This document shows positions 19,650-41,124 of a stretch of 59,235 nt of DNA, piece after piece. The notes under the pieces are model-generated. The model worked only from the letters and a program-made list of their open reading frames with translations, had not been told where the DNA came from and ran no database searches. Within the stretch, counting starts at the first letter, position 1; each line of letters starts with the position of its first letter. Source of the stretch: Crocinitomicaceae bacterium. GTDB taxonomy: Bacteria > Bacteroidota > Bacteroidia > Flavobacteriales_D > Crocinitomicaceae. The stretch is from the NCBI GenBank assembly GCA_044341975.1, contig JBIIQP010000001.1:1-59235 (forward strand), written 5' to 3'. The position numbers and the translations under genes are program-made.

Positions 19650-20122
19650 TATTCTTTGTTTTAATTCTTTAACATTGGTCAATTTTGTCTTAAGCTTGCC
19701 TTTAAAACCTTGAGAATATGATTTTTGAACAAGCGCAGCAAAGAAGAAGAACATTATTACCCGAAAAAACAGCCTGATCTTCATAGTAGTCTATATTATG
19801 ATTGGAACAAAACCGACTTTAGTATAGGATTCAAACTTAACCTTGGCCAGCTAAAACATTTAAGCACAGACGAAATATATAAAAAAAATTTATACCTTTT
19901 TTCATATTAAATAATTATGAAAAATACGCGGCAAAAATAATTGGGGAACAAAGAAAACACCACACAAACTTAATTCTCCTTTAACAATTTTATGATGTAC
20001 GCTTTCGACCTTTGCCAAGATGAAAGTCGCTACTCTGAATTGTCTGTATCCCTTGAAAAGTGAACACATTGTTTTCAGTTATTTGAAAGGAACAAGAAAC
20101 CACCACTTACAATTATTTATTC

Positions 20123-21009: not shown

Positions 21010-22071
21010 ATGAAAGTGTTGTACGCATTTCAAGGGACAGGCTTCGGACATATCTCAAGAGCAAAGGAAATCGTTCCTTTGTTAAAAGAAAAGGTTGAAA
21101 CCGATGTGCTTATCAGTGGCGCAAACAAAGATCTTGAATTGCCTTTTGAAGTTAAATACAGAATGAAGGGACTTACCTTCTTTGCTGGAAAAACTGGCGG
21201 TATTGATTTCTCCAAAACCTACCATAAAAACAGCCTGTTGCGTCTTGGACAAGAAATAGTTAAGGTGCCCGTAAAACAGTACGACCTTGTTATAAATGAC
21301 TTTGAACCTGTAACGGCGTGGGCTTGTAAATTAAAAGGAACAAACTGCGTTGAGCTTAGTCACCAGGCGGCGGTTATCGATCAAAATGCTCCAAAGGCGG
21401 TCAATAAAGCGCTATTGGGAAAATTTTTGCTTGAGCGCATATGTCCTATCCCCTTCAAATATGGGTTTCATTTTCAAGAATACAATGATTTCATTTTCAC
21501 TCCGGTGATACGAAAACAAGTACGTGAGCTTGATTTAAATGAGTGCAAAAATCATTACACGGTTTATTTGCCTGCATACACTTCCTCTTACCTCATTGAG
21601 CAATTGTCTAGCATTGAATCGGCATTTTGGCACATCTTTACCCCGGAAGTTGAAGAGGTTACCATTGTAAATAATTTTACGCTGTGTCCCTTAAACAATG
21701 AGCGATTCTTAGAAAGTATGGCCACATCTCTGGGGGTTGTTTGTGGTGCTGGTTTCGAAACACCAGCAGAAGCGTTGTACCTTGGGAAAAAATTACTTGT
21801 TGTCCCAATGAAAGGCCAGTATGAACAGCTATGCAACGCAGCTAGTCTCGAAAGTCTTGGTGTGCCGGTAATTGATCACATAAATGCCAATACGATCGCA
21901 AGATTGAGCCAATGGATCGCCTCAAACAAAAGCATACAAGTGAATTATCCAGACAATATTTCATTTATACTCGATGAAGTCCTTGAAACACATTTGAAAC
22001 ACATCAGGAAGGGCCTTCAAGCGAATACCCCAACTCATTTAAATACTGCGCCACTGCGCCAGTATAATTAG
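21010..22071 (+). CDS. Glycosyltransferase (GT-B fold, MJ1255/GT28-like)
   Basis: 353 aa, starting 2 nt after the LpxH-like stop. The N-terminal 'FQGTGFGHISRA' and C-terminal 'GAGFETPAEALYLGKKLLVVP' resemble UDP-sugar GT-B enzymes. Specificity is unknown. Confidence 0.6.
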   Translation: MKVLYAFQGTGFGHISRAKEIVPLLKEKVETDVLISGANKDLELPFEVKYRMKGLTFFAGKTGGIDFSKTYHKNSLLRLGQEIVKVPVKQYDLVINDFEPVTAWACKLKGTNCVELSHQAAVIDQNAPKAVNKALLGKFLLERICPIPFKYGFHFQEYNDFIFTPVIRKQVRELDLNECKNHYTVYLPAYTSSYLIEQLSSIESAFWHIFTPEVEEVTIVNNFTLCPLNNERFLESMATSLGVVCGAGFETPAEALYLGKKLLVVPMKGQYEQLCNAASLESLGVPVIDHINANTIARLSQWIASNKSIQVNYPDNISFILDEVLETHLKHIRKGLQANTPTHLNTAPLRQYN

Positions 22072-23066
22072 AAATTACTTCTGTATGTTTTCTTAGGAGA
22101 GGTATAGACCAGCGAAAACTCCAACCCTCTATTTTTATACTCTATAAGATAACTGTTCACAAAACAATAACTTGTGCGCAGCGTAATACCTTTCACTCTT
22201 AGCCCAAGCTGCACAATAAACGCATTTTTGTTTCGCCAGTTGAAACCAATGATTGCATCATTGTCCTTGTTCAATGAAAAATGAAGCAACGAACCTACAT
22301 TTAATTCCTGGGCTTTATTTTGAGCCATGTATAAGACTTGAGGCTCAAGTAAAACTTTGTCGTCCAACTTATATGAAATACCTAAGTGTGCATTAAAATG
22401 CAAAGGCATGGATAAGTTCACCCCGTTTATTCGCTCTCGATTGCCTGTAATGTTGTACAAAGAAGTTCCTGCATACACCTTCATTTTATTGGGCTTAACA
22501 TTTACCCTGTAGTAAAGTCCAACGTTGGTATTGAACTGTGTAAAAACACTTGTATTAAAGTTCTCTCCGTTTGGAAGTGACAAATCAAAACCTGAAGCTG
22601 AAGCAGCAGAATATTGACTGTCAAACGAATAATCTACCGGAGAATAGCTCTTGTTCAACATACCAAATTGTACACCAACGGCAAGGTTCTGTTTGTCGAT
22701 ACCATCAACATTCTTACCAATTAACTTATAAGATGTTCCAAACATAAAATTGGTTGTGGTAAACACATTGCTCACACTTCTGTCATTGCTGAAATATTGG
22801 CCAACTGTCCATTTATCCCCAACAGGAACATCTAATCCTTCCGAAACACTTCGGTAGTTGCCCGGTCCTGCTGAGTAGTTTGATTTTTGATCCCTGTAAT
22901 TCACATTCAAACGCAAGCCTGTATATTCTGAAGACAAGCGCTCTCCAAGCAACGCGGGATTCAAATATGTAGGATTAGCATCAAATTGAGCATAATGATA
23001 ATCCTGGGAGTATGTCTTCAATGTTGCAAAAATCAACGCGGTTAATGCTAAAGCTATCCTTTTCAT
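22068..23066 (-). CDS. PorP/SprF-family type IX secretion system membrane protein
   Basis: 332 aa with a signal peptide, then 'QDYHYAQFDANPTYLNPALLG', the family-defining N-terminal motif. It is beta-barrel-like and lies 10 nt downstream of a type-B CTD gene. Confidence 0.8.
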   Translation of the reverse strand: MKRIALALTALIFATLKTYSQDYHYAQFDANPTYLNPALLGERLSSEYTGLRLNVNYRDQKSNYSAGPGNYRSVSEGLDVPVGDKWTVGQYFSNDRSVSNVFTTTNFMFGTSYKLIGKNVDGIDKQNLAVGVQFGMLNKSYSPVDYSFDSQYSAASASGFDLSLPNGENFNTSVFTQFNTNVGLYYRVNVKPNKMKVYAGTSLYNITGNRERINGVNLSMPLHFNAHLGISYKLDDKVLLEPQVLYMAQNKAQELNVGSLLHFSLNKDNDAIIGFNWRNKNAFIVQLGLRVKGITLRTSYCFVNSYLIEYKNRGLEFSLVYTSPKKTYRSNF

Positions 23067-23076
23067 AACACTCTTT

Positions 23077-26000
23077 TTAATACCTGTTTAGATGAATGAC
23101 TCCATAAAGGTTCACGTTTTCATTGTCGAGGGTTTCACCTTTAATGATGTATTCATAAGATCCTGAAGGTTGAGGCACGCCTCTATAGTTTCCTGTCCAT
23201 CCAATACTTTGGTCTGTACTTTCAAAAATTAAATTCCCCCACTCATTGAAGATTTGCATACGAATCGTTTTAAATGGTCCGCCACGCACATACAACACAT
23301 CATTTGCACCATCACCGTTTGGCGTAAAAGCACCTGGAATGGCCACATTATTCGTTGCAAGAATGTAAACATTTTCACAAAGTGTATCTGTACATCCATA
23401 TTGACTAACAGCCGTTAAACAGACTTCATAAATACCCGTGTCCGCAAAAATATGTATTGGGTCTTCCTCATTTGAATAGGTGCCGTCACCAAACGACCAG
23501 CTAACTGAAGTTGACAACACTGATTCATTCATGAAGTCAATTTGTGCTTGTGGCACAGCTGCCGTATCATTTGAAACAAGGTACGCGGCAGTTGGGTGTT
23601 TCTCCATTGTAATTGCATCTACTAAAAGCAACGAATCCACACAGCCATAAGGCGTTGTTACCTGCAAAAGCACTGAATAATTAGCGGTTGAAACATAAAC
23701 TTCAGTAGGGTTTTGCAGTGACGAAGTATCTCCATTTCCAAAATTCCATAAATACGTTGAACCCAAAGGGGTTGTTGAAAGATCATCGAACGTGACAGAC
23801 AATGGCGAACAACCTGCCGCAGGCAAAGCAGCAAAGTTGACAATCGGTTTGTCTTCGATCACCACTGGTTTCACAATTGTATCCGAACAACCCTGATCCG
23901 TTGAAACAATGAGGGAAACATCAAAGGTTCCTGCATCTACATAAACATAGACAGGATCGGATAATGAGCTTGAGTTACCGTTGCCAAAATTCCAATTCCA
24001 TGAAGTTGTGGCCCCTGTAGAAGAAGAAGATAAATCAGTAAAGTCAGTGGCCAGTCCTGCACAGTTTTGTGAGTTAGAAAAGTCTGCAACAATACCACTT
24101 AATACATCAATATAATCTGCTATTGTTAATGAATCAGAACACCCACCTGGTGCTGTAACTATTAATTCTACATCATATAATCCTTGATCGCCATAAGTAT
24201 AGGTTGGATTCTGAATTGACGCTGACGAACCATTACCAAAATTCCATTGATACGTTGACCCTGGAGCCGTGGTACTGGTACTGGAAAAGTTTATTGCCAA
24301 TGGCGAACATCCATCCGTTACCGGAGATGTAAAGTTTACAGTTGGTTTACTGTTGACGCTAACCGGCAATGTGACATCATCAGAACACCCAGCAGGGTTG
24401 GTTACAGTTAACACCACTGAATAGGTCCCGGAAGATAAAAAAACTTGTGATGGGTTTTGTTGGTTGCTGGTTTGGCCGTTTGCAAAGTTCCACTGCCATG
24501 ATTGATTTTCAAGCCCAGGCGTCACTATTTCTGAAAACTGTATCGGCGAATTCACACAACCAGCAGAATATGAAAACGCAGCGGTTGGTCCAGCTTGTGC
24601 ATTAATGTAATTGATCTTCGTTGTTGAATCGGTGCATCCCGCAGGACTCGTAACGATTAAACGCACTGAATATTGACCACTGTTGGTGTAAACATGCGCA
24701 GGGTTCACTTGTGACGAAAAATTATCGTCACCGAAACTCCAAAAATAGGTGGATCCAGCGTCAGTAAATGTGATGTTGTTGAAGTTTACCGAAAATGGGG
24801 CACAACCTATTGGTGTTGCTGCAGCAAAATCTACCAGAGGTTTGCTGTCAATGTGAACAATTTGTGTTGTTTGAACAAGTTGTCCAGCGCTACTTAACAC
24901 CTGCAGTGTCACAGGATAATCTCCTGCTATTGAAAAAACATGCACTGGATTTTGAACATTGCTGTTTGTACCATCACCAAAATTCCATTGCCAACCTACA
25001 ATGCTTCCTAGTACATAAGAAGAGGTGTCTGTAAATTGAGTGTTCAATCCTGAACAAGTTTGATCCACTAAAAACCCAGCAACGGGCATATCAATTATGA
25101 TTGTTTGGGTTGCTTGATCTGTGCACGCGCCCGCAACAATTGCAGTTAATATAACACTGTAAGCTCCACCCGCTGCGTATGTGTGAACCGGTTCGAAAGC
25201 CGTTGAAGAGGTGTTGTCTCCAAAATTCCATGAATAAGTAGATCCAACAGGAGAAGACGTGTTTGTAAAATAGATGGAATCCGTGATTGGATCAATCGTA
25301 TAGGTAAACTGAGCGGTTGGCAAAACGTTTACCGTAATATTATCTGAATAGTTGAATACACACCCATCGATGGTGCCATAGTTCAAGTTAATGGTATAAG
25401 TGGCAGCACCATTGTATGTTGTGATCGTGCTTTGCGTGTTGGCAGTTGCGCCGTTTCCAAGGTCCCAAGACCATGCATTAATTGTTCGTCCATTATAGAC
25501 AGTTGGCGTAGAAAAATTAACCAACGAACCATCACAAATTACTGGTGGATTTGTTACAATCAAACCTCCCGATGAAGAAGATGTTTTGAATTTATGCTTA
25601 CAAACCGATCCATTTAAAAGAGTTGTTATAGTATTGAAATCCGCCGTGTCAATTGCAGTACACGCTCCTGCCAATTGAAAACGCAACTTGATCAATGTTG
25701 TATTCATTGGCACCAAGTAACTCGCTGATGGACCCGATGTCGTATTGCTCACAAATTGGTTCATCGGATTGTAATACGTGTATGGATCCAATGGCCCCAC
25801 CAAATTAAAGGTCGTGTCATAGGTCATCTTCGTTAAATCAAACTTAAACCAGAAATCAAATGAACTAATTGGTCCATTTGATTTAATCGAAACAGGTATA
25901 TCATAAAAATAATTTCCTCCTGTAGAGACAACTTGAGCATTGCCAAGGTCAAAAAACATTGAATCATTTGACACATCGTACGTCGGGGGTGGCGTTAATG

Positions 26001-26106
26001 CGCTTTTCTCCACTGTATTCGGTGAATTTGCATATACAATTTTACTGCTGGTCATCAACAGAAAAAACAAGCAGATCTTGACAATTAACCCTTTGTTTTG
26101 TTTCAT
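23077..26106 (-). CDS. Adhesin with an N-terminal cohesin-like module, nine PKD domains and a T9SS type-B (CHU_C) C-terminal domain
   Basis: 1009 aa with nine 'W.(W/F)(N/D)(F/L)G(D/N)G' PKD signatures. The C-terminus reads 'AIPGAFTPNGDGANDVLYVRG...IFNEWGNLIFES...GWTGNYRG...GSYEYII'. Confidence 0.85.
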   Translation of the reverse strand: MKQNKGLIVKICLFFLLMTSSKIVYANSPNTVEKSALTPPPTYDVSNDSMFFDLGNAQVVSTGGNYFYDIPVSIKSNGPISSFDFWFKFDLTKMTYDTTFNLVGPLDPYTYYNPMNQFVSNTTSGPSASYLVPMNTTLIKLRFQLAGACTAIDTADFNTITTLLNGSVCKHKFKTSSSSGGLIVTNPPVICDGSLVNFSTPTVYNGRTINAWSWDLGNGATANTQSTITTYNGAATYTINLNYGTIDGCVFNYSDNITVNVLPTAQFTYTIDPITDSIYFTNTSSPVGSTYSWNFGDNTSSTAFEPVHTYAAGGAYSVILTAIVAGACTDQATQTIIIDMPVAGFLVDQTCSGLNTQFTDTSSYVLGSIVGWQWNFGDGTNSNVQNPVHVFSIAGDYPVTLQVLSSAGQLVQTTQIVHIDSKPLVDFAAATPIGCAPFSVNFNNITFTDAGSTYFWSFGDDNFSSQVNPAHVYTNSGQYSVRLIVTSPAGCTDSTTKINYINAQAGPTAAFSYSAGCVNSPIQFSEIVTPGLENQSWQWNFANGQTSNQQNPSQVFLSSGTYSVVLTVTNPAGCSDDVTLPVSVNSKPTVNFTSPVTDGCSPLAINFSSTSTTAPGSTYQWNFGNGSSASIQNPTYTYGDQGLYDVELIVTAPGGCSDSLTIADYIDVLSGIVADFSNSQNCAGLATDFTDLSSSSTGATTSWNWNFGNGNSSSLSDPVYVYVDAGTFDVSLIVSTDQGCSDTIVKPVVIEDKPIVNFAALPAAGCSPLSVTFDDLSTTPLGSTYLWNFGNGDTSSLQNPTEVYVSTANYSVLLQVTTPYGCVDSLLLVDAITMEKHPTAAYLVSNDTAAVPQAQIDFMNESVLSTSVSWSFGDGTYSNEEDPIHIFADTGIYEVCLTAVSQYGCTDTLCENVYILATNNVAIPGAFTPNGDGANDVLYVRGGPFKTIRMQIFNEWGNLIFESTDQSIGWTGNYRGVPQPSGSYEYIIKGETLDNENVNLYGVIHLNRY
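25600..25971 (-). other. Cohesin-like module (protein residues ~46-169)
   Basis: 'FFDLGNAQVVSTGGNYFYDIPVSIKSNGPISSFDFWFKFDLTKMTYDTT...LIKLRFQL' fits the cohesin pattern (strand with ..PV.., then .DF.F.YD...L). It is clearly paralogous to the module at 26500..26868. Confidence 0.5.
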
Positions 26107-26202
26107 GTGAAAATAGAAAAAGCTTGATGCGAAGGTACTTTTGATATACCACCCTGTTGTTAACTAGATGTTGCCGGTATGTTAAATTAGGGGCGCAAAA
26201 AT

Positions 26203-26943
26203 CTAATTCACCTTAACAATCCGGGATTTACAAATTGTATTTGCCGTAGAAATTTTCAACCAATAGATTGCATTTTCGAGCGTTTCAATATTCAATTGAT
26301 CGTTCTCATTGAACATGCGCGTTTCCATTACCTTGCTGCCATTAAGATCATATACTTCAACAAGTGATTCTTGATTGGAATTTAATTGAACATAATTCGA
26401 TGCAGGATTAGGGTGAATATTTAAATCGCACTCTTTGTACAAATTCAATTCGTTTATTCCAGCACCATTATTGGTTGCGGGCGCTGTCCAGTAATAGTTG
26501 CATGGATTACCATTGAACAGAGCTGTGCATGCAAAGAAATCTGCAGCTTCTATTAAAGTACTCGCTGATGAAAGGATAAAACGCAACTTTAAAAGCGTTG
26601 TGTTTCCAGGGAGCTCATAAGTAAGGCTTGGCCCTGATGTAGTATTGCTTAAATTGTTATTGGAAGTGTTGAAATAGCTGTAAGAATCGAGGTCCGGTTC
26701 AATCACTATTGTTGTATCGTACGTTAATTTAGTTTGATTAAATTGAAACCAAAAGTCAAATGAACTGATTCCTCCCGTTGTAATGGCATAAACGGGAAAC
26801 TCATAATAGGTGGTTCCTGAAGTTGTAGTGGTTGTGGCATTGGCAAGGTCAAAAACCATCGTGTCTAATACACTTTTTGATTGGCTTTGAGCAATTGAAG
26901 CAAAGGCTCCAAATAAGAATAAAAAAGATAAAATTCGTTTCAT
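26203..26943 (-). CDS. Small T9SS type-A cargo consisting of a cohesin-like module plus a C-terminal sorting domain
   Basis: 246 aa with a signal peptide and the cohesin-like 'YYEFPVYAITTGGISSFDFWFQFNQTKLTYDTT'. The CTD reads 'NIHPNPASNYVQLN...VEVYDLNGSKV...AIYWLKIST'. Confidence 0.75.
   Translation of the reverse strand: MKRILSFLFLFGAFASIAQSQSKSVLDTMVFDLANATTTTTSGTTYYEFPVYAITTGGISSFDFWFQFNQTKLTYDTTIVIEPDLDSYSYFNTSNNNLSNTTSGPSLTYELPGNTTLLKLRFILSSASTLIEAADFFACTALFNGNPCNYYWTAPATNNGAGINELNLYKECDLNIHPNPASNYVQLNSNQESLVEVYDLNGSKVMETRMFNENDQLNIETLENAIYWLKISTANTICKSRIVKVN
26500..26868 (-). other. Cohesin-like module (protein residues ~26-148)
   Basis: Alignable by eye over its full length with residues 46-169 of the 23077..26106 product (shared ISSFDFWF.F..TK.TYDTT, SNTTSGPS, NTTL.KLRF). 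Confidence 0.5.
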
Positions 26944-26975
26944 AGTTTTTGATTTTAGATGAGTGTTTTTAAAAG

Positions 26976-27011
26976 AAAGGAAGCCGTAACCACGAGGGCA
27001 CGACTTCCTTT
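26976..27011 (-). terminator. Hairpin terminator downstream of the 27039..30470 gene
   Basis: An 8-bp outer stem AAAGGAAG/CTTCCTTT plus an inner CGT/ACG pairing. On the minus strand it is followed by CTTTTAAAAA. It lies between the stop at 27039 and the next start at 26943. Confidence 0.5.
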
Positions 27012-27038
27012 TTGAATTATTCCGATGAAGAAATAAGC

Positions 27039-30000
27039 TTATTTACCAACTACAACTCTTTCAGTTTTGCTGAATTGACCGTTAGAGATTTGAACGAAGT
27101 AAACTCCGTTAGAAAACTCATTCATGTCGATTGTAGTTTTTTCATTTGCATTCACATCAAATTGTGTCAATACTTGTTGACCAGTGATGTTCATGATTTG
27201 AACAGTTGAATTTTGACTTGCAACGATGTTCAACAATCCTTTTGTTGGGTTAGGATAGATTGAAGCAAAGTTTGAAGTCTCTTCATTGATAGTAAGTGCA
27301 GATTTACTGAATTCAACAGTAACTGGTTTACCATTCAACAATCCAAGTGTATTAATGAAATCATCCGCATTGATTTTACCTGCAACATTGTTGAAAGTAA
27401 CTTTCGCAATAGTGTTGTTTGCAACGAAGTTATCCATGTCGATTGCTGTATAACGTAACGTTCTATCACTTTCATTGAAGAATGCAAATCCGTCTACGTC
27501 TGCATTTACTGCATCAAGTGTAGAATAAGTCATTTTATCTTCGTTGTATTGGAAAGCGATATCCAATGCGTTAACTGGCTCGTTAGAAACGATTGACACA
27601 GGAACCTCAACTGTAGATCCATTCACAACCGCGTTGTCAAGATCAAGGATTACCTTAGATGTAGCGCTTTTCAACACTCCGTCAGCTGTATAAGCAGCAT
27701 AGTTTCCATCAACATCACCCAACATGATACCTTTATAAGTAATAGTATCAGATACTGGACAGTTTGCATATCCTGTTACTCTTGCAGGAAGTACGAAAGG
27801 AACAACCGGCACTTTGTGTTTTGAATAACCAACTAAATCATTTGCAGGGAACGTAGTTGAAATTTGGTAAGCTGGCGTTTGAAGTCTTACAGTATCAATA
27901 AAAACCCAGTCCTTTGAAGGCTGACCGTTAGAAACACCAGCAGCAGAATAGTTCCATGCTTGTTGGTACTCACCAATGTTCAATGTTGCTCTTTGCTTCA
28001 TTTGTGAGATATCCCCAGCAGAAACAACACCATCAAGGTTAACATCCAATGCAAGAATCTGATAGATTGATGGTTCAAAAGTTGCATCGTTCAAAAGAAG
28101 TGTTTTACCTTTTACAGCATCCGCAGCGTTGATGATCAACTGAACTGTTGCTGTGTTACTTACATTTCTTTCGAAATTCAAACCAAGACCATTTGTTAAA
28201 ACATGTGTGAAGCTTCCGTTGACATCTGGAGAAACAAATGTACTGTTGTTAACAACATTTGTTACAGTATCTGCTCCACGCACTTTAGAAATAAGAAACG
28301 CGTTAGGAAGAGCTGCGTTGTATTTGATTGGGCTGTTGTCCAACCAGAACTTCATTAAACCAGCGTAGTTCTCATCTCTGTATGTAATTGCTTTACCTGT
28401 AGAAGATGTCTTCGCAGCAACTCCAATGATATAACTTTCTTGAAGGAAAGATGTTGTAAACAACGATGTGTCAGTTGATGCAAAACTTCCTGTTTTATTA
28501 AACTCTACGCAGAAAATTTTACCTGTACCAAAGAACTCAGCAGTTGAAGGAGCAGATCCTTTGAAATATACAGAAATAGTCATTTTACCATTTACAGCAT
28601 CGATAGCGTGTGATTCTTCAATGTACGCAGTATTGATCAAATCTCCGTAAAGTGTGATGTTGCCTGTAGGTGTAACCTTAGCAGCGTTGTAATTCAACAC
28701 AACATCGTAACCTTTTACGTTGTCAACTGGAGCTGTTACAGCAACTGAAAGAGGAATGCAGAAAGTTGATTCATCACATGGTTGAGAAACGATTCCGATT
28801 TCATAAGGAAGTGCGTTTGGATCAGCGATGTTCAACACAACTGCAGATGAAGTTGTAATTGCACCTTTGTTGTCCGTTGATTTAACTGTCAAACTTGCTG
28901 TTCCTGGAACAGAAGTCCAAGTGTAAGAATATGGTGATGATGCATCAACACCAACAGAAGCACCATTTACAAAGAATTCAACTTGCGTAACTGTACCATC
29001 AGCATCAGATGCTGTAGCATTGATTGTTACTGCTGCTGGAGCAATGTATGTTGCAGAAGCCAATGGAGAAGTAATTGCAGCACTTGGAGGAGTGTTCACT
29101 GCCACTGCGATGTTTGCCACTGAAGAAGTAGCTACCAAACCTAAGTCATCAGTTGCTCTTGCTTTGATTGTATGGCTTCCTGCTGTAGCAGTCCAGCTGT
29201 ATGCATAAGGAGAAGAAGCATCCGTTGAAACGACAACGTCATCGATCAAGAACTCAACTTGTGTTACTGAACCATCAGCATCAGAAGCCGTTGCTGTAAT
29301 ATTTACAACATCTTGTTCGATTGCAGTAGTTGGAGCAGAAACAGCCACCACTGGAGCTTGGTTAGGAGCTACTGTAAAGTTGATTGTAGAAGTTTGAGTT
29401 GTAGCACAGTCACCATCTGTTGCGATAGCATAAAGCGTGTGCGAACCATTTGCAGCAGTGTAAGCAGCAGAATAAGGAGATGTTGCATCAGTTGCGAACA
29501 AAGCACCGTCTAAATAGAACTTAACATCTGTTACAGAAACGTTATCTGAAGCAGTTGCAGTAAAGTTAGTAGCCGTATTCGTGATAATTGCAGCACCATT
29601 TGAAGGGCTAGTCAATGAAATAGTCGGCGGCGTGTTTGCCGTTAATGTTAATGATGGGTGAGTTAAACCACCACTTGGAGGATTATTAGCCCAATAGTTT
29701 TCAACAGCATTCGTTAAAACATTTTGAATTTGTATGTTTAATTCAAAACTCAAGTTTCCATCTGTTGTAAACTGCCCAACCAACACCCTGTTTGTAGAGG
29801 TTAAACCTACGACTCCACCTAGTGCAGCAATTGACCCACCGTTTATTAAAACTGAATTTCCTGGGGTTTGATCTAATGCATCCAATGATGACCCCAAACC
29901 AAGTGAGTTGGGAGCAACATAGTAGGGTGGCGTTGCTGCAGAAAAAGTCATCATACCGTCAGCAGCACCTGTACCATTAATTGGCGCACCAAAACATCCA

Positions 30001-30470
30001 CCTGGATTGTTTGCAAGAATGCTTTGAGCATTACCAACAGACCCGTCTGTGTCTTCGTTTTTAGGAACACCAACCTTCGCACCACCAACACCACCAGTAG
30101 TGAACCATGAATCGAGCATTACTGTGTTTTTTCTAGTGTTTGTTGCAGAAACTGTGTACGGGTTTACTGTAACCCCGAAATTACCTTCATTAAAAAAGTT
30201 GGTTGTTGTGTTAACCTTTAAAGGATTCGAAGCGTTTCCAACCAACAAATTGAATTTCCAACCAGCAGCCATGTCCACATAAACACGGTACGTTACTGAG
30301 TTAGTTGTAAGTGGTGCTGGAGCTCCCTCAGAAACTGAGTTAGCCACATCTGCAGCGTTTGCTTGGTAGTATTTCTCTACGTAAATTCCATCCAAACCTT
30401 GAGCGAACGAAAAGTTACCAATCATTGCCAATCCAAGACCAAGCAATAATTTTTTAGTGTTTGTTTTCAT
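27039..30470 (-). CDS. Modular T9SS type-A surface protein: paralogous N-terminal module, 3 Ig-like domains, cohesin-like, dockerin-like, second cohesin-like, then the sorting domain
   Basis: 1143 aa. The N-module (res ~25-275) contains 'GIYVEKYY...TYRVYVDM...DSWFTTGG...GVPKNEDTDGS...GQFTTDGNLSFELN'. Three ~85-aa Ig-like repeats follow ('...ATASD.DG.VT.VEF......D.SSPY.Y.W'). The CTD reads 'SIYPNPTKGLLNIV...NGVYFVQISN'. Confidence 0.85.
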   Translation of the reverse strand: MKTNTKKLLLGLGLAMIGNFSFAQGLDGIYVEKYYQANAADVANSVSEGAPAPLTTNSVTYRVYVDMAAGWKFNLLVGNASNPLKVNTTTNFFNEGNFGVTVNPYTVSATNTRKNTVMLDSWFTTGGVGGAKVGVPKNEDTDGSVGNAQSILANNPGGCFGAPINGTGAADGMMTFSAATPPYYVAPNSLGLGSSLDALDQTPGNSVLINGGSIAALGGVVGLTSTNRVLVGQFTTDGNLSFELNIQIQNVLTNAVENYWANNPPSGGLTHPSLTLTANTPPTISLTSPSNGAAIITNTATNFTATASDNVSVTDVKFYLDGALFATDATSPYSAAYTAANGSHTLYAIATDGDCATTQTSTINFTVAPNQAPVVAVSAPTTAIEQDVVNITATASDADGSVTQVEFLIDDVVVSTDASSPYAYSWTATAGSHTIKARATDDLGLVATSSVANIAVAVNTPPSAAITSPLASATYIAPAAVTINATASDADGTVTQVEFFVNGASVGVDASSPYSYTWTSVPGTASLTVKSTDNKGAITTSSAVVLNIADPNALPYEIGIVSQPCDESTFCIPLSVAVTAPVDNVKGYDVVLNYNAAKVTPTGNITLYGDLINTAYIEESHAIDAVNGKMTISVYFKGSAPSTAEFFGTGKIFCVEFNKTGSFASTDTSLFTTSFLQESYIIGVAAKTSSTGKAITYRDENYAGLMKFWLDNSPIKYNAALPNAFLISKVRGADTVTNVVNNSTFVSPDVNGSFTHVLTNGLGLNFERNVSNTATVQLIINAADAVKGKTLLLNDATFEPSIYQILALDVNLDGVVSAGDISQMKQRATLNIGEYQQAWNYSAAGVSNGQPSKDWVFIDTVRLQTPAYQISTTFPANDLVGYSKHKVPVVPFVLPARVTGYANCPVSDTITYKGIMLGDVDGNYAAYTADGVLKSATSKVILDLDNAVVNGSTVEVPVSIVSNEPVNALDIAFQYNEDKMTYSTLDAVNADVDGFAFFNESDRTLRYTAIDMDNFVANNTIAKVTFNNVAGKINADDFINTLGLLNGKPVTVEFSKSALTINEETSNFASIYPNPTKGLLNIVASQNSTVQIMNITGQQVLTQFDVNANEKTTIDMNEFSNGVYFVQISNGQFSKTERVVVGK
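27306..27659 (-). other. Cohesin-like module 2 (residues ~938-1055)
   Basis: 'KVILDLDNAVVNGSTVEVPVSIVSNEPVNALDIAFQYNEDKMTYSTLDAV...IAKVTFNNV' is the closest of the four modules to the classical cohesin pattern (G.tv.vPV.......v...dF...Yd...l). Confidence 0.55.
27981..28049 (-). other. Dockerin/EF-hand-like Ca-binding segment (residues ~808-830)
   Basis: 'LDVNLDGVVSAGDISQMKQRATL' matches the dockerin repeat D.N.DG.....D followed by a helix. A second short 'LGDVDGNY' lies at residues ~917-924. Confidence 0.45.
28371..28805 (-). other. Cohesin-like module 1 (residues ~556-700)
   Basis: 'FCIPLSVAVTAPVDNVKGYDVVLNYNAAKVTPTG...GKIFCVEFNKT' has the same strand pattern as the other cohesin-like modules. 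Confidence 0.45.
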
Positions 30471-30654
30471 CTTTTTATTTTTATTTTGTTTTTAAAAATC
30501 ACTGTTCAATAGTCACCCAGATCCGCTTGAAGTGGATTACTATTTTGCTGATATTGTGTGTTTTGACTTTTAGTCGAAGAAACTCAAACTATCCAATTTC
30601 TTTTTTCAAGATCGAATCTTTCAGCAACTATTGAACGATGATTAATAATTCTTT

Positions 30655-32865
30655 CTAATCACAAGACAATCCGAAAGCAGGAGCAAAGATTGTAAAATCG
30701 TTTACATCTGTATCTCCATCCTTATCCAAGTCTGTAGGACACGCTTTTACACCTGAAGTAGAACCAATCACTTGAGAATAAGACCAGTCAGACAACCAGT
30801 TTTGACCTGGTGTTGAAGAGAATGCACCACGGTAAGGAGCAGGCTCAAAGAAACCATCAAGCGGAGGCTGAGGACAGCCCGTGATAGACAGTGCTGGATT
30901 TGGAGTTGCATCATTCTTCGTAACGATGGCATTTGTATTTCCATTGATTGCGAAGGCAAAAGTGAAACCTGGCAATGTGGAAACCACATCATTTTTGTCT
31001 GTTGTTGTAAATTGAGTAAACTCTAAACCGTTTGCAGGACCGGTTGGTGATTGCGTAGACGCTGTAAGGTTGGTTCCCAAGCTTGCGCCTGACGCATTAA
31101 CAGTTAATGGGTTTGTTACTCCCACAAACGTGTTACAAATTACCTTCAAACCTTGTGTTCCATTACCAGAAGTCGCTGAACCCGTTGTTCCCGTAGCATA
31201 CCAGTTGTTCCAAGCTTCACCGACTGGATAAGCACGATTAGAACCAAGTGACTTTTGTAAGTTCAAACCATTACGGAAATTAGAGAATACGGAGTTGTAA
31301 ATTTCACCTTCGGTTAAGTCTTTAGCGTTAATTGCTGCTAAAGCAGAATTGTCACCTCCAACTGTTCCAGTTGTTTTAGAGTTCCCAATGAATGTAGAGT
31401 TATAAATGATTGGATGCGTTCGAGGTAAATTATTTGATCTATTGTCATCTGAATCTGCCTCAATTCCATTGTCATTGTCCGCGCTCACGTTTCCAATACC
31501 TGCTTGATCAGCTTTCATTCCAAAAACAAACTGTGCCTTACCTGTCCAGCCAAGATCGTAATCGAACATGTCGTCGTTACCAAATAGTGTCGTACAATAT
31601 TTTAGATTCACTGTTCCACCGAAAATTTCGATGTTGTCATCCGCACAAGAAACGATCTCAATATGTTCAATTTTAGTACCACGACCAACCGAAGCAAGTG
31701 TAAGACCATTGATCTCAGAACCTACTAAAAGGTTCGCTCCTGAGTGACGGATAGACACATAGGTCATTACACCTGAATTGTCATTGTCATCGAAAGAACC
31801 TGTACTTGTATAGTATGCACCAACATAACTTGCTACGGTTCCACTAGTTCCAGAAGTTGGAGCAGCTCCAGAAGCAGGTGCGACATACGTCATAGAACTA
31901 AAATAACCCGTTGCACCTGGACTTGGATAATCTCCTCCAAAAGTGATTGCGTCACCTGCTGTAACAGCAGCAGTAAGGTTAGCTGAAAGGGTAAGAGTTG
32001 TCGTATAAGGACCAGAACCTGTTTGGGCAATACTTAAAATTGTCGAGCCTGCCGCAACACCTGTTCCAGACACCGTTTGACCCTGAACGACGTAAGCAAG
32101 TGGTGAGGCCGAGCTAGAAAGTGTTAATTTATTCTGTCCGGAAGCATTTGAGCCAGATGCCGCTGCACCCGCTGTCAAACCAAAAGTGTACGAACCTGAA
32201 GGCGAAGTTGAAAGCACCGTACCAACTGGTATGCTCGTAGCCACACCAAACTGGTCTTGAGGATAAGAAGAAGCAAAACCTTCAATTACACCCAAACCAT
32301 CTGCCACAGCCAACTTACCAGCTTGACCAGGCACAAATGGGCCGTTTGCCACGAGAGTTAAATTATTAGTAGCTTTACCTAACAAAAGCACACCGCCCCA
32401 CATACCTTTGTTTGTAACCCCATAGGTTCCACTAAGGTCATCTGCTTGAGCTGTAAAAACGATCGGACAAGACTCAGTTCCCGGAGCCATGATCTTACCA
32501 CCTCTTTCGATGATGAGTGCAGTCGCTGCTGCTAATGATGGTGCAACCGTTCCTTTAATTACAGTTCCCGGTTGAATCGTTAGTGTTGCACCAGATGCTA
32601 CATAAATTTTCTGATCTAATGTCCAAATCTTGTCACATGTTAACGTCAAATTTCCAGTAATTTCACCTCCATAAGCAGACGTTGCAAGGTTAGTCCACAC
32701 ACCATTCGCCTGCGCCAAACTTTGAATCGTTTGCGTAGCTCGTGATGTTGTAGAAGGACAGCCACAAGCTGCACCCAGATTTTGTTGCGCAACAGTTGCG
32801 CTTGTACCTAACACTGTCATTGAAGCCAATGTAAGGAGACTTTTAATTGTCTTTTTTGTTTTCAT
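30655..32865 (-). CDS. Secreted parallel beta-helix-like protein with a C-terminal dockerin-like segment and no T9SS sorting domain
   Basis: 736 aa with a signal peptide (..TSATVAQQ). Beta-helix-type repeats include 'ASGATLTIQPGTVIKG' and 'GTKIEHIEIV...DDNIEIFGGTVNLKYC'. A long Ser/Gly/Thr/Ala-rich insert is present, and the protein ends 'CPTDLDKDGDTDVNDFTIFAPAFGLSCD'. Confidence 0.6.
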   Translation of the reverse strand: MKTKKTIKSLLTLASMTVLGTSATVAQQNLGAACGCPSTTSRATQTIQSLAQANGVWTNLATSAYGGEITGNLTLTCDKIWTLDQKIYVASGATLTIQPGTVIKGTVAPSLAAATALIIERGGKIMAPGTESCPIVFTAQADDLSGTYGVTNKGMWGGVLLLGKATNNLTLVANGPFVPGQAGKLAVADGLGVIEGFASSYPQDQFGVATSIPVGTVLSTSPSGSYTFGLTAGAAASGSNASGQNKLTLSSSASPLAYVVQGQTVSGTGVAAGSTILSIAQTGSGPYTTTLTLSANLTAAVTAGDAITFGGDYPSPGATGYFSSMTYVAPASGAAPTSGTSGTVASYVGAYYTSTGSFDDNDNSGVMTYVSIRHSGANLLVGSEINGLTLASVGRGTKIEHIEIVSCADDNIEIFGGTVNLKYCTTLFGNDDMFDYDLGWTGKAQFVFGMKADQAGIGNVSADNDNGIEADSDDNRSNNLPRTHPIIYNSTFIGNSKTTGTVGGDNSALAAINAKDLTEGEIYNSVFSNFRNGLNLQKSLGSNRAYPVGEAWNNWYATGTTGSATSGNGTQGLKVICNTFVGVTNPLTVNASGASLGTNLTASTQSPTGPANGLEFTQFTTTDKNDVVSTLPGFTFAFAINGNTNAIVTKNDATPNPALSITGCPQPPLDGFFEPAPYRGAFSSTPGQNWLSDWSYSQVIGSTSGVKACPTDLDKDGDTDVNDFTIFAPAFGLSCD
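30658..30747 (-). other. C-terminal dockerin/EF-hand-like segment bracketed by cysteines
   Basis: 'DLDKDGDTDVNDFTIFAPAF' is a D.D.DG.....D Ca-loop followed by a short hydrophobic helix. Confidence 0.45.
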
Positions 32866-32896
32866 AAGATAAAAAATAATTTTCGCGTTTACGATG

Positions 32897-32904
32897 CAAA
32901 GTTA
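32897..32904 (-). promoter_or_regulatory. Candidate -7 promoter box (TAACTTTG on the minus strand)
   Basis: Plus-strand CAAAGTTA is minus-strand TAACTTTG and matches TAnnTTTG. It lies 32 nt upstream of the ATG at 32865. Confidence 0.35.
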
Positions 32905-33035
32905 CGGGGGTAGTTTGCACAATGTATTACGCTTATTTTATCTATCTGATAAACTTTTACTAAGCCAGGGTATTGCTTTTTTTAAGGGAAAATTAAGTTG
33001 TTAAGCCAATGTGAACAACTTCTGGCTAGATTCTC

Positions 33036-33701
33036 TTACAAGTCTCTGGCAATGGCCAATTGAATGCCCGCACTGAACAACCTGCATGCCAAATCACCTT
33101 TTGAAACACTTGTAACCTGCTGCATAGCAAACAGCTGTGCTCTAAGCTTCCAAACCGGATCAAGTTTTACCAACACCCCTGCAGCCAATTGAGCATGCAA
33201 GGTAATAGAACTGGAAGAAGGGTATATTGACATCTTTTGTCGTTCATACGCATTCACCTCTTGATAAACGGCAGTGCTTTTTAAAAGTGTACCTGGAATG
33301 AATGATGGTTGAATGCAGAATTGAAAGCTCTCATTCGTGCGAAAATAAAAATTGGCTCCTACAGGAAACTGAAGGAAATGATAGTTTAAAGCATAGGATA
33401 TAAACCCATTAATAGCCTGTTCGTTGTAACTATAACCTTGCTTGTTATAGGCGATTCCCATGAAAAAAGATCTTTGTTCACTTACACCAAACTCATGGTT
33501 TATTTGGATGCCAAATCCAGCACTTCCTTTTTGCAAACTATCTTGTTCGTTTTTCAACCAATTCAACTCCTCGTTATTTGTTGAAAAAAAGCGGTAGTTA
33601 AAGGCTGGATTGACTGCTATTTCAAAACGTTGCAAGGTGTCCTGTGCAAAAAGTTGCGATCCAGTGATTGCTATAAAAAGTAGAATTAGAATTTTTTTCA
33701 T
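33036..33701 (-). CDS. Small outer-membrane beta-barrel (porin-family/OMP_b-brl-like) protein
   Basis: The ORF track starts at 33719. The ATG at 33701 (MKKILILLFIAITGSQLFAQ) gives a clean signal peptide. Alternating beta-strand pattern, ~220 aa, last gene of the operon. Confidence 0.6.
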   Translation of the reverse strand: MKKILILLFIAITGSQLFAQDTLQRFEIAVNPAFNYRFFSTNNEELNWLKNEQDSLQKGSAGFGIQINHEFGVSEQRSFFMGIAYNKQGYSYNEQAINGFISYALNYHFLQFPVGANFYFRTNESFQFCIQPSFIPGTLLKSTAVYQEVNAYERQKMSIYPSSSSITLHAQLAAGVLVKLDPVWKLRAQLFAMQQVTSVSKGDLACRLFSAGIQLAIARDL

Positions 33702-33705
33702 CTGG

Positions 33706-34419
33706 TTAGTCTTTAACACATCGAATGCTCATGCCATATTGGGCATGGGTATGCTGTCTGAAAATAGTTTTTTTCTTAGAATCAATATAACGGTAATACC
33801 CTTCTTCGCCATTGAGTGTTGATGTCCAGAAGAAAGCTGTGGTGGCATTGATGGAAGAGGTGCCATTGAATACTCTGCATCCTGCTGGTAAAATTCTCAT
33901 TTTGTATTTATCATTTCCAAAAGGCACACTGTTTGTTGGCCATCCTTCCGAATACAATGGCATGAGCAATTCTGCTTCGTTGGTTCCTCGCCATGCCAGT
34001 TTCTCTGTTTCCCCCTTGGCCATGCCAATTGCAAGTTCTAAGGCTTTCCAATCTTCATCCGTTGCCACGTGCCATCCTTCAGGTGCTAGTTGTTTCACGC
34101 TTTGCACTGCTGCCTGATTATATAGACATCCATAAATGGAGTCATTCAGGAAAGTATAACTTGGTAGGGATGCGTTTGCCCAAATCGTATCATTTGCAAA
34201 AATTGGAACGTAATTCAATTCACTTCCATCTGCTAGCCGCTTTGTCTTGAGGTTTTCCGTCATCCACCATTTACCCCCTATTTTTACGGTATTATAGGTA
34301 TTCCCATCTACATCTGTTACAGTTGAAGTTTCTAAAGGCTGTTCCTGTTCCTCTTTTCCGCATGAAGCAATTGAAAAAATAAGGAGCGCCGAAATAGTGA
34401 TAAAACGTAAAGCTTTCAT
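33706..34419 (-). CDS. FISUMP-domain (Fibrobacter succinogenes major paralogous domain) lipoprotein
   Basis: Lipobox 'FSIASC'. The motifs 'VTDVDGNTYNTVKIGGKWWMTENLK', 'APEGWHVATDEDWKALE', 'FFWTST' and the C-terminal 'GMSIRCVKD' are diagnostic of the TIGR02145-type domain. An alternative upstream start lies at 34437. Confidence 0.8.
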   Translation of the reverse strand: MKALRFITISALLIFSIASCGKEEQEQPLETSTVTDVDGNTYNTVKIGGKWWMTENLKTKRLADGSELNYVPIFANDTIWANASLPSYTFLNDSIYGCLYNQAAVQSVKQLAPEGWHVATDEDWKALELAIGMAKGETEKLAWRGTNEAELLMPLYSEGWPTNSVPFGNDKYKMRILPAGCRVFNGTSSINATTAFFWTSTLNGEEGYYRYIDSKKKTIFRQHTHAQYGMSIRCVKD

Positions 34420-34420
34420 A

Positions 34421-35764
34421 TTAATTCGATTTAACAAGGATCATTGTTTCTACTTTCCCCCCAACAGTAACAATCAGGTGATACAAGCCATTTTGTTGGT
34501 TGGAAAATTCCAACACCTCATCAATAACTTTTTCAGTTGCCGATAGATCTTTGCTTATAATCTTCACGCCATATGTGTTTACTATCTCATAATGAATTGG
34601 CTCGTCTGACATTCCAGAAAAAATGTTCAAAGTAAAATCATCATTGGATGGATTCGGAAAAACCTCAAGTTCAAACGACTCTCCCAGAAGAGACGGACAA
34701 ACTTGAGCAATATCTCTTCCGTTGCACAAGCCCGGATAGCAGCACAATCCTTGGACATTGAAATTCGACTGTGGATCAAAGTTACACGCCATAGAATCCA
34801 TGCAACCGTATATTATTGGGGTTATACATGATCCAGCCTCCAAACAACCAACAGTAGGATCGAATTCCAAATAAAGTGGGTCATTACAACCACATTCTAG
34901 TGGATAGATCAAAAAGGGATTATAGGTCTCTCCTGCTAACAAAACACTATCAGAACCAACATAAGTGAATGTCTGTAATTCACCGTTAACCTCTCCTTCT
35001 ATTTCCAGATTTAGATTAAACGACAGCTCTCCTGCGGTTGTTAATTGAGCGATTAATACATGATTACTATCTACAAGCACTCCAACCGTTCCGGTATTTC
35101 TCAATTCAAACTGACGACTATTGAATTCCGTGCCCGAATTGAGGGAACCAAAAATAGTGGTGTCAGCCCCAGTAACAAAATCAGTAACACCAACAGAAAA
35201 CCAAGTAGTTGGAGTATTAACAAGCGTATCCATTCCATCCGCAAGTGTCAATGGGCTGCCACATGAAGGATCTGCATTGGTCAATAGACCTCCTGAAATC
35301 ATTGCGCTTCCTCCGTCATTATTTTCCCCTCCGATAAAAGATCCATCGGTATCATATTCTTTCGGAATTCCAAAAAACGTTTTCCCCCCCTGTGTCTTTG
35401 TCGTCTGCCCAATCGTGAGCCAAGAATCGAGTGCAACGATATTCTCAGAATAACGAGCCTTTACAAAATCCTTCGCGAAGGTTTGTCCATCGGTTGTATG
35501 GTTGTAAAATGTTTCTGTGCTCCGAACAATAAATGGATGATTATCATCACCATATAACTTTTTCAGGCGAAAACCTGGTGCCATATCGACATAAATCCTA
35601 TAAGTGGTAGTGCCAGCAGGCAACGTTCCACCTGTTGTGTCTGTGGCATCATTTGCATCGCTGAGATAATACTTTTCTATGAACACGCGCTCTAATTGCG
35701 CAGATGCCGCTACTCCCGTCAAAACAAAAATTGATGTTAGTATGAAAGCTGTGAAATTCTTCAT
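34421..35764 (-). CDS. T9SS type-A cargo with the paralogous N-terminal module, a Cys-rich linker and a sorting domain
   Basis: 447 aa. The N-module contains 'VFIEKYYLSDA...TTYRIYVDMAPGF...DSWLTIG...GIPKEYDTDGS...AQLTTAGELSFNLN'. The Cys-rich segment is 'CGCNDP...GCMDSMACNFDPQSN...CCYPGLC'. The CTD reads 'LEVFPNPSNDDFTLNI...GLYHLIVTV'. Confidence 0.75.
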   Translation of the reverse strand: MKNFTAFILTSIFVLTGVAASAQLERVFIEKYYLSDANDATDTTGGTLPAGTTTYRIYVDMAPGFRLKKLYGDDNHPFIVRSTETFYNHTTDGQTFAKDFVKARYSENIVALDSWLTIGQTTKTQGGKTFFGIPKEYDTDGSFIGGENNDGGSAMISGGLLTNADPSCGSPLTLADGMDTLVNTPTTWFSVGVTDFVTGADTTIFGSLNSGTEFNSRQFELRNTGTVGVLVDSNHVLIAQLTTAGELSFNLNLEIEGEVNGELQTFTYVGSDSVLLAGETYNPFLIYPLECGCNDPLYLEFDPTVGCLEAGSCITPIIYGCMDSMACNFDPQSNFNVQGLCCYPGLCNGRDIAQVCPSLLGESFELEVFPNPSNDDFTLNIFSGMSDEPIHYEIVNTYGVKIISKDLSATEKVIDEVLEFSNQQNGLYHLIVTVGGKVETMILVKSN

Positions 35765-35768
35765 TTAT

Positions 35769-38828: not shown

Positions 38829-38848
38829 ACCGAATGGTATTAAATAGG

Positions 38849-39952: not shown

Positions 39953-39959
39953 ATCGATA

Positions 39960-40790: not shown

Positions 40791-41039
40791 ACTTATTCAC
40801 TTTGTGCCTTCAAAAAAGACAATACATTTCAAAGCGCAAGATTATTGAAATCCTTTAAGCAATAAATTAAGCCTGTGTTATAGTTAGATTAAAATTCTAG
40901 CGCTTTAGCCATTAACAGACCCTGATTTTTATTCGAAGCTTCCATAAATTTTCCGCTGTAGTGTATTTGAATCGTCAAAAAACAAACTATACATAGACAT
41001 AAAATGCTATCATTAAATAGATTAAGTGGTAAATCCGCG

Positions 41040-41070: not shown

Positions 41071-41124
41071 ATTGCTAAACCTTGGGTTCAAATGGTTTGG
41101 CGACATTCGTCAAAAATTTAAAAA

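Follow-up and report, generated by a model that had tools for sequence, protein, structure and literature searches.

Cohesin- and Dockerin-Related Modules on Type IX Secretion Cargo and a Neighboring Beta-Helix Protein of a Crocinitomicaceae Bacterium

Results

Genes and Modules at the Locus

We analyzed a 59,235-nucleotide stretch of DNA from a Crocinitomicaceae bacterium (assembly GCA_044341975.1, contig JBIIQP010000001.1, positions 1 to 59,235), referred to below as the 59-kb window, in which four co-directional genes of the minus strand encode the proteins designated here p1 to p4. The subject of this report is a set of modules in these proteins, very probably cohesin and dockerin homologues, that are carried on T9SS (type IX secretion system) cargo and on the beta-helix protein encoded beside it. 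A preliminary description of this DNA had picked out four cohesin-like modules in three adjacent genes, and their boundaries map exactly onto p1 residues 46-169, p2 residues 26-148, and p3 residues 938-1055 and 556-700; we read all four as divergent cohesins. The list below gives residue numbers in parentheses and uses our module assignments, cohS being the small cohesin family defined in the next section and HMM standing for hidden Markov model.

23077-26106, minus strand: p1, a T9SS cargo protein of 1009 residues, in which the signal peptide and N-terminal cohS module are followed by nine PKD domains and, last, a type B sorting domain
25600-25971, minus strand: m1, cohS-type cohesin of p1 (46-169); cohS HMM E 7.6e-32, Pfam Cohesin E 0.017, below cut-off
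23122-23343, minus strand: type B sorting domain CHU_C of p1 (922-995); Pfam CHU_C 1e-14, NCBIfam TIGR04131
26203-26943, minus strand: p2, 246 residues; a cohS module lies between its signal peptide and its type A T9SS sorting domain
26500-26868, minus strand: m2, cohS-type cohesin of p2 (26-148); cohS HMM E 7.2e-34, 49% identical to m1
26212-26418, minus strand: type A sorting domain of p2 (176-244); Por_Secre_tail 7.6e-12, TIGR04183
27039-30470, minus strand: p3, a 1143-residue scaffoldin-like T9SS cargo protein
28347-28805, minus strand: m4, larger cohesin of p3 (556-708); Foldseek fold match, Pfam matches of orthologues
27981-28145, minus strand: internal dockerin of p3 (776-830); helix 1, linker helix, intact second calcium loop, and helix 3, with the first loop degenerate
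27660-27980, minus strand: conserved region after the p3 dockerin (831-937), ending in a 'GDVDGN' loop
27306-27659, minus strand: m3, cohS-type cohesin of p3 (938-1055); HHalign against the m1/m2 family, Pfam Cohesin E 0.0059
27048-27260, minus strand: type A sorting domain of p3 (1071-1141); Pfam, NCBIfam
30655-32865, minus strand: p4, 736 residues, of the Beta_helix_4 family (PF28492); signal peptide of type I
30658-30741, minus strand: C-terminal cysteine-bracketed dockerin repeat of p4 (709-736); C-PT-DLDKDGDTDVND-FTIFAPAFGLS-C-D

Proteins p1, p2, and p3 each combine a signal peptide with a sorting domain, type B in p1 and type A in p2 and p3, with all scores above cut-offs, and are T9SS cargo; as had been proposed, the cohesin scaffolds are of the type anchored through a C-terminal domain. 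The PKD domains of p1 match Pfam PKD_4 at 6.5e-108.

The Cohesin Modules

The m1/m2-type and m3-type modules form one family (HHalign 99.4%, E 4e-21), which we name cohS. HMMs of both module types, built from relatives, find only m1 to m4 in the window. Judged singly, these modules lie below the curated Pfam Cohesin (PF00963) cut-off of 24.1 bits: m1 scores 15.8 bits and m3 17.2 bits, and m2 and m4 give no match to that family. Among 25 diverse cohS modules, Pfam Cohesin is the top family for 18 (best E 7e-7), with no competing family, and a homologue of p2 and its module m2, P0016, reaches 25.0 bits, the sole cohS homologue to pass the curated cut-off. (P0016 has a terminal Response_reg fragment behind its PKD domain and lies on a 1.5-kb contig; it is probably an assembly or gene-calling chimera.) When the cohS profile was compared with the Protein Data Bank (PDB), 13 of the 15 best matches were cohesins (best E 0.0047), an Archaeoglobus cohesin among them. 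Module m3 is all-beta, with ten strands in an AlphaFold2 model; the cohesin fold is assigned to m1 and m2 through their homology to m3, and the Foldseek search described below used a combined p3 segment, not m3 singly.

Architecture of p3

Reading from its N-terminus, p3 consists of a domain shared with other genes of the surrounding cluster (residues 24-280), three Big_7 domains (281-550), m4, a beta region, the dockerin, a conserved region, m3, and the type A sorting domain. More than 120 clusters from metagenome-assembled genomes (MAGs) of Flavobacteriales and Crocinitomicaceae match it over the full length, with 50-60% identity. A search with p3 as a single sequence against PDB sequences returned no cohesin or dockerin relative. 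An AlphaFold2 model of residues 546-1077, built from 52 orthologues, reached pLDDT 85 and pTM 0.74, and Foldseek matched this m4-containing model to more than 40 cohesin chains in the PDB with probability 1.0, E about 1e-7, and target-normalized TM scores of 0.65-0.77. With 532 residues in the query, the query-normalized TM of 0.24 means that no fewer than 128 are aligned; because m3 is shorter than that, these matches belong to m4. As modeled, m4 has the nine-stranded jelly-roll fold of cohesins and can be superposed on solved cohesins, and 5 of 15 m4 orthologues match Pfam Cohesin as their top family (best E 1.4e-5). HHalign found no significant sequence similarity between m4 and m1-m3, and the m4 profile drew nothing relevant from the PDB, so the assignment of m4 rests on the fold comparison together with the matches of its orthologues. 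The best overall structural matches of the p3 model are 3kcp and 4fl4, both components of the C. thermocellum cellulosome, which we take to be the cohesin-X-dockerin segment of CipA.

The preliminary description had also placed a dockerin-like segment inside p3, and here the orthologues agree: all 14 orthologous segments match Pfam Dockerin_1 (PF00404) and no other family (best E 1.6e-6), the segment of p3 itself scoring 18.6 bits (E 0.002) when taken singly, below the cut-off of 22.9 bits. Residues 809-826, DVNLDGVVSAGDISQMKQ, hold the second calcium loop, D809-x-N-x-D-G-x-x-S-x-x-D820, with ligands D809, N811, D813, S817, and D820 at loop positions 1, 3, 5, 9, and 12, and the pattern D-V-N-x-D-G-x-x-S-x-G-D is invariant among the 52 p3 orthologues. 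All eight PDB matches of the segment's profile are dockerins, the alignment spanning helix 1, the linker, the second loop, and helix 3, and the AlphaFold2 model places three helices in the segment. The helix of the first repeat and an intact second repeat are present and the first calcium loop is degenerate, so that the segment departs from a dockerin with two complete repeats; from this combination of profile matches and loop residues we read it as a dockerin. Residues 831-937, which follow, hold the densest invariant columns of p3 (E..QAWNY..G...G..S.D..F.D, C-P, and the terminal GD.DG loop) and have no family or PDB match outside the dockerin part. In its order of cohesin, beta region, dockerin, cohesin, and sorting domain, p3 is built like a scaffoldin. 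The check by profile and structure that the preliminary description had called for gives matches to Cohesin and Dockerin_1 at the level of families and the jelly-roll fold for m4, the modules of the window being below threshold singly.

The same model bears on a different reading of p3, in which its dockerin binds one of p3's own cohesins in the same chain, giving a rigid stalk with no free site for other proteins. The pTM and pLDDT obtained for the four-domain segment would allow such rigid intramolecular packing of the dockerin, and the connections between p3 modules are short and conserved. Packing of this kind would, however, leave p1, p2, and the free-standing dockerin-cohS proteins described below unexplained, and we consider it unlikely.

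The Beta-Helix Protein p4 and Its C-Terminal Repeat

More than 3,600 relatives of p4 were found, and at least 120 homologues (52-93% identity, among the matches listed) all carry PF28492 (Beta_helix_4). Protein p4 itself gave no match in Pfam, in a copy that did not contain PF28492, or in NCBIfam, and as a single sequence it found no dockerin, beta-helix, or other relative among PDB sequences; a literature search for PF28492 or Beta_helix_4 found nothing. Foldseek matches the AlphaFold2 model (pLDDT 68) to phage tailspikes and, at the level of fold only and with low TM, to parallel beta-helix lyases and GH110 enzymes. The protein has a type I signal peptide and, by Pfam and NCBIfam, no T9SS sorting domain of type A, B, or C, nor does it have a classical lipobox; because it has no sorting domain it is not T9SS cargo. 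The preliminary description had likewise given p4 a signal peptide and neither a T9SS C-terminal domain nor a lipobox, and it was right to do so. We considered p4 as a lipoprotein and rejected the idea: its first cysteine lies 14 residues beyond the hydrophobic core, in a conserved 'AQ-QNLGAACGCP' motif that fits cleavage by type I signal peptidase. Residues ~205-355 (31801-32253) form a beta insert rich in Thr, Ser, Gly, and Ala, with the motif 'G[QM]xVSGTGIxxGTTVxSIS...TLSA' and pLDDT 85-92; the motif ranges from no copies in 580-residue homologues to four or more in those of 950-990 residues.

Near the C-terminus, residues 712-731 read DLDKDGDTDVNDFTIFAPAF, with the stop codon six residues on. 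The repeat proper covers residues 712-733, with calcium ligands D712, D714, D716, D720, and D723 (loop positions 1, 3, 5, 9, and 12), and the consensus for this end of the protein is C-P-T-D-[LI]-[ND]-x-D-G-x-T-[DN]-x-x-D-F-L-I-F-A-P-A-F-G-x-x-C-N. Cys709, Cys735, and the D-x-D-x-DG...D pattern are invariant in 30 aligned homologues and 25 locus sequences, and no Beta_helix_4 sequence examined lacks the repeat, the sample being the 30 aligned of the more than 3,600 homologues, 580-residue forms included, and 82 loci. A profile of the p4 C-terminus matches both repeats of the dockerin 2y3n_B in the PDB (E 9e-11), followed by eleven further dockerins (7e-4 to 3.5e-3) and then by EF-hand proteins. 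Because it matches both repeats of 2y3n_B and because dockerins lead the ranking, the p4 C-terminus corresponds to one dockerin repeat and not to a whole dockerin. The earlier claim of a dockerin-like segment at this position therefore stands as to kinship and must be amended as to extent, to a single repeat bracketed by Cys709 and Cys735. We rejected the idea that the motif is simply an EF-hand, an FG-GAP, or a thrombospondin repeat, since twelve dockerins outrank any EF-hand protein and the match continues past the loop, through the helix and the 'FG'.

Relatives of the p4 Repeat

A 30-residue profile of the p4 repeat, searched against 1.84 billion representative proteins (E <= 0.001), finds 2,071 protein clusters. 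Among the 145 best representatives with recognizable repeats, 89 have two repeats and 107 carry the last repeat at the extreme C-terminus; 59 of 89 repeat-bearing proteins scanned match Pfam Dockerin_1. The proteins so equipped are diverse, including a GH9 protein (P0282), M10 peptidases, PhoX, glucose/sorbosone dehydrogenase, nuclease-type domains, and giant proteins of Ig repeats, and the family co-occurs with the Bacteroidota-specific domains SprB, Ig_7, and HYR_4C. Some Beta_helix_4 proteins end in two repeats (P0258 and P0264), and P0258, P0264, and P0257 carry two or four. At one related locus (L068, 3542-10171) a 2210-residue protein encoded beside the Beta_helix_4 gene ends in tandem cysteine-bracketed repeats (C..DLTDDGVTDINDFLIFAPAFGFTC-SN-C..DINHDGSIDINDFLLFAPKFNRVC). 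On this distribution, the p4 repeat belongs to a large family of portable C-terminal dockerins. If the modules do pair, the cysteine-bracketed dockerins and the small cohS cohesins would define two unannotated subfamilies.

The two kinds of module also occur in one polypeptide. A cohS module is present in 7 of the 149 best repeat-bearing representatives, in five of them at E 1e-24 to 1e-30, and a group of metagenomic mini-proteins (P0263, P0272, P0294, and P0261, of 204-228 residues), together with P0257 and P0391, consists of nothing more than a signal peptide, a two-repeat cysteine-bracketed dockerin, and a cohS module; the opposite arrangement, with cohS ahead of the dockerin, exists too. 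By analogy, these mini-proteins look like adaptor scaffoldins, and we regard the dockerin-cohS fusions as the strongest indirect evidence that cohS modules and cysteine-bracketed dockerins may work together.

Co-occurrence in Related Loci

We collected 83 related loci, 52 of them with at least 6 kb of downstream sequence, and searched for modules within 10 kb by tblastn (1e-5) and HMM (1e-2). The gene for p4 adjoins a p3-type gene across many genomes, and the cohesin-dockerin-cohesin part of the p3-type gene is present in 39 of the 52 loci. At 39 of 44 loci the p3-type gene has a cohS protein after it, and no cohS protein was seen without a p3-type gene. Wherever the sequence extends far enough, the gene next after Beta_helix_4 codes for the shared N-terminal domain.

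These observations bear on whether the modules pair at all. It is conceivable that the cohesin-fold modules are ligand-binding or adhesin tips, directed at glycans or surfaces and held up on T9SS stalks, that the dockerin-like segments are structural calcium sites, and that no pairing occurs. In p1 and its relatives the cohS module begins the mature protein and tops the PKD stalk at its distal end, as is typical of adhesins; divergence among the modules is high, and singly they lie below the Pfam cut-off; and, to our knowledge, most non-cellulosomal cohesins have no assigned function. Such a reading must nevertheless contend with the repeated fusion of cohS to two-repeat dockerins in small proteins lacking any further domain, with the joint presence and absence of the p3 dockerin and cohS proteins, and with the scaffoldin-like order of cohesin, beta region, and dockerin in p3, whose best structural match is 3kcp/4fl4, and we judge it quite improbable.

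The Surrounding Gene Cluster

The region of p1 to p4 forms the downstream half of a cluster that is conserved among freshwater Flavobacteriales (Crocinitomicaceae/Cryomorphaceae-like) and whose other members in this window are as follows.

22068-23066, minus strand: gene for a PorP/SprF-family outer-membrane protein, directly downstream of p1; NCBIfam TIGR03519 1.1e-31, above cut-off
33036-33719, minus strand: outer-membrane beta-barrel gene, in the upstream part of the cluster; Pfam
33706-34437, minus strand: Fib_succ_major lipoprotein gene, in the upstream part of the cluster; Pfam
34421-35764, minus strand: gene for the shared N-terminal domain with a sorting domain; paralogue alignment, Pfam
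35769-38828, minus strand: TonB-dependent-receptor-like gene; Pfam
38849-39952, minus strand: second gene for the shared N-terminal domain with a sorting domain; paralogue alignment, Pfam
39960-40790, minus strand: gene for the shared N-terminal domain alone; paralogue alignment

In order of transcription the cluster encodes (1) the N-terminal domain alone, (2) the same domain with a sorting domain, (3) the TonB-dependent-receptor-like protein, (4) the N-terminal domain with a sorting domain again, (5) the Fib_succ_major lipoprotein, (6) the beta-barrel, (7) the Beta_helix_4 protein (p4), (8) the p3-type protein, and (9) one or more cohS proteins (p2 and p1), with PorP/SprF sometimes last. L001 and L003 keep this order, as do most of the 83 related loci. 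PorP/SprF proteins are the usual partners of cargo with a type B sorting domain, and the pair of type B cargo and PorP/SprF gene recurs in L003. A scan for promoters and terminators over 21900-41200 performed at chance level, and Bacteroidota promoters lie outside what it covers; for both reasons it does not inform operon structure.

The shared N-terminal domain, of about 250 residues, is common to four genes of the cluster at 34-43% identity (39960-40790, 38849-39952, 34421-35764, and, within p3, 29631-30401, all on the minus strand); one copy stands alone with a Lys-rich tail, two are joined to a T9SS sorting domain, and one is in p3. It has no match in Pfam, and its profile has none in the PDB. 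The TonB-dependent-receptor-like protein (1019 residues) has CarbopepD_reg_2 and Plug domains and no SusD partner. In the Fib_succ_major lipoprotein, conserved together with the receptor-like gene and the small beta-barrel, the lipobox ...SIASC is followed by GKEEQEQ, possibly a surface-export signal. Three more large T9SS cargo genes lie in the window, at 2296-9951, 14583-19784, and 41125-44814, encoding respectively a 2551-residue PKD/SprB-repeat protein with a type B sorting domain, a 1733-residue GEVED/HYR/fn3 protein, and a 1229-residue choice-of-anchor I protein; the 59-kb window is unusually rich in T9SS surface proteins.

Discussion

The modules described here suggest a non-cellulosomal cohesin-dockerin set mounted on T9SS cargo, and whether they mediate assembly among the proteins of the cluster is, as we see it, an evenly balanced question. 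In the assembly we envisage, calcium-loaded dockerins would plug into cohesin modules displayed on the cell surface. The likeliest pairing would join the p3 dockerin to the cohS heads of p1 and p2, or to that of another p3 molecule, producing a surface assembly near the TonB-dependent receptor, and the cohesins left free could receive dockerin-tagged enzymes whose genes lie elsewhere in the genome. Protein p4 is a candidate passenger by way of its single repeat, and this is the least supported step. The preliminary description had offered dockerin-cohesin binding as the means by which p4 is tethered. Of that proposal, the modules are real, the genes are adjacent, and the repeat is portable and elsewhere fused to cohS, but the repeat is also kept at loci where no cohesin was found within 10 kb, amounts to half a dockerin, and sits on a protein with a periplasmic default; tethering of p4 to p1-p3 through its repeat is, we think, a doubtful proposition.

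Several observations, in addition to the possible intrachain packing of the p3 dockerin, weigh against the assembly. In 13 of the 52 loci, tblastn and HMM searches found no cohesin-like or dockerin-containing p3 module within 10 kb, and the p4 repeat is kept; its mean entropy in these loci is 0.45 bits versus 0.78 bits in the others, so that it is at least as conserved there. Only one repeat, half of a dockerin, is present in p4, and in clostridial dockerins both repeats are, as far as is known, required for binding. AlphaFold2 assigns low confidence to the last 45 residues of p4 (692-736). There is, finally, the matter of crossing the outer membrane. Because p4 is Sec-exported without a sorting domain or lipid anchor, it would by default be periplasmic, away from cohesins at the surface. 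The same problem attends nearly all proteins with a cysteine-bracketed dockerin: a T9SS sorting domain was found in 2 of 89 scanned, leaving 87 without one. Export by the T9SS needs a folded C-terminal domain, and the T9SS passages of the review that states this make no mention of hitch-hiking (PMC9251779). For dockerin-tagged proteins in general, the possible answers are (i) an unrecognized route, such as co-export with cohesin cargo or release in vesicles; (ii) pairing elsewhere; or (iii) no pairing.

Local co-occurrence favors a link of the cohS proteins with the p3 dockerin over one with p4, since a cohS protein accompanies the p3-type gene in 39 of 44 loci and never appears without it, and 13 loci keep the p4 repeat without a cohesin within 10 kb. 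The partner of p4, if there is one, need not be encoded next door. We may then ask whether cohesin-dockerin pairing exists in this lineage with p4 standing outside the local assembly, its repeat serving as a small calcium-binding, disulfide-stapled C-terminal element that is intrinsic to the Beta_helix_4 family, or binding a partner other than p1-p3, and p4 itself working alongside the TonB-dependent-receptor cluster, either in the periplasm or on the outer membrane's inner face. The invariance of the repeat in 30 aligned Beta_helix_4 homologues, its retention and greater conservation at the 13 cohesin-less loci, its presence in a single copy, and the want of a sorting domain or lipobox in p4 all fit this arrangement. 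So does the identity of the neighbor, since what p4 universally has beside it is a protein with the shared N-terminal domain, at the cohesin-less loci too, and not a cohesin; at L080, a cohesin-less locus on the complete chromosome OZ260085.1, that neighbor joins the shared N-terminal domain to Ig-like repeats and a sorting domain. Set against this are the portability of the same repeat, which occurs on many unrelated proteins and in fusions with cohS, the full two-repeat version found on some Beta_helix_4 proteins, and the fact that the 13 genomes could encode cohesins elsewhere. A role for p4 outside the assembly is accordingly a tentative reading that we entertain as a possibility.

A bolder extension of the assembly model can be imagined, in which the cysteine-bracketed dockerin would serve Bacteroidota as a second tag for targeting proteins to the surface. 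Signal-peptide proteins that have no sorting domain would bind cohesins of T9SS cargo, the single disulfide-stapled repeat of p4 would be a minimal dockerin, and binding might begin in the periplasm, with the passenger co-exported through the translocon, resulting in a cellulosome-like display of enzymes beside the TonB-dependent transporter. We think this very unlikely.

Comparison with known systems brings out both the kinship and the peculiarities of the locus. It shares with the CipA-type scaffoldins of clostridia the cohesin jelly-roll (Foldseek probability 1.0, target-normalized TM up to 0.77), the D-x-N-x-D-G...D dockerin loop, and the joining of cohesin and dockerin in one protein. It differs from them in belonging to a two-membrane organism that anchors its proteins by T9SS sorting domains rather than by SLH domains or sortase, in having modules that fall below Pfam cut-offs and dockerin repeats that are bracketed by cysteines, and in the internal position of the p3 dockerin, with its degenerate first loop and 100-residue conserved extension, as well as in its link to a TonB-dependent-receptor cluster. 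Nor is this a cellulosome, as Pfam and NCBIfam find no glycoside hydrolase or carbohydrate-binding family in p1-p4. Non-cellulosomal cohesins and dockerins are reportedly widespread, a view credited to Peer et al. in 2009. With such systems, of which Archaeoglobus fulgidus 2xdh is an example and is among our best sequence-profile and fold matches, the present modules have in common their divergence, the absence of any sign of a cellulosome, and the occurrence of both types in one polypeptide; the defined conserved cluster, the T9SS anchoring, the cohS subfamily, and the cysteine-bracketed dockerins, the one-repeat form included, set them apart.

A precedent in concept weakens the novelty implied in the preliminary description, to whose author no characterized T9SS-anchored cohesin scaffold recruiting a beta-helix enzyme was known. 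In Ca. Stygibacter (Cloacimonadota), a T9SS-sorted cohesin scaffoldin and signal-peptide enzymes ending in dockerins have been inferred from MAGs; the scaffoldin has 3,755 residues, with tandem canonical cohesins and CBM2/CBM3, and the enzymes have recognizable catalytic domains (PMC8542988). The concept is the same, and both systems are known from sequence alone; unlike the Stygibacter system, the one described here has one or two cohesins per protein, no carbohydrate-active enzyme identified in the locus, a one-repeat dockerin on p4, and a link to a TonB-dependent receptor. Dockerins have also been described in rumen Bacteroidetes (Prevotella and Bacteroides), where they were interpreted as transfers from Firmicutes in the anaerobic gut (PMC6487960). 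Ours are likewise in Bacteroidota proteins, but the family is widespread in metagenomes and takes in aerobic freshwater Flavobacteriales (the Beta_helix_4 proteins and L068). What is distinctive here is the cohS subfamily, the cysteine-bracketed repeats with a one-repeat form fixed in a large beta-helix family, the dockerin-cohS mini-proteins, and the link to a conserved TonB-dependent-receptor cluster.

Should the modules not pair, what is left is a conserved and well-defined cluster, and the Beta_helix_4 family within it is an uncharacterized one. If they do, aerobic freshwater Flavobacteriales would build surface assemblies from plug-and-socket parts of the clostridial-cellulosome type, anchored by the T9SS beside a TonB-dependent transporter, which would raise the question of how dockerin-tagged proteins that have no sorting domain cross the outer membrane. 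The cohesin-dockerin principle would then extend to a large group of two-membrane environmental bacteria.

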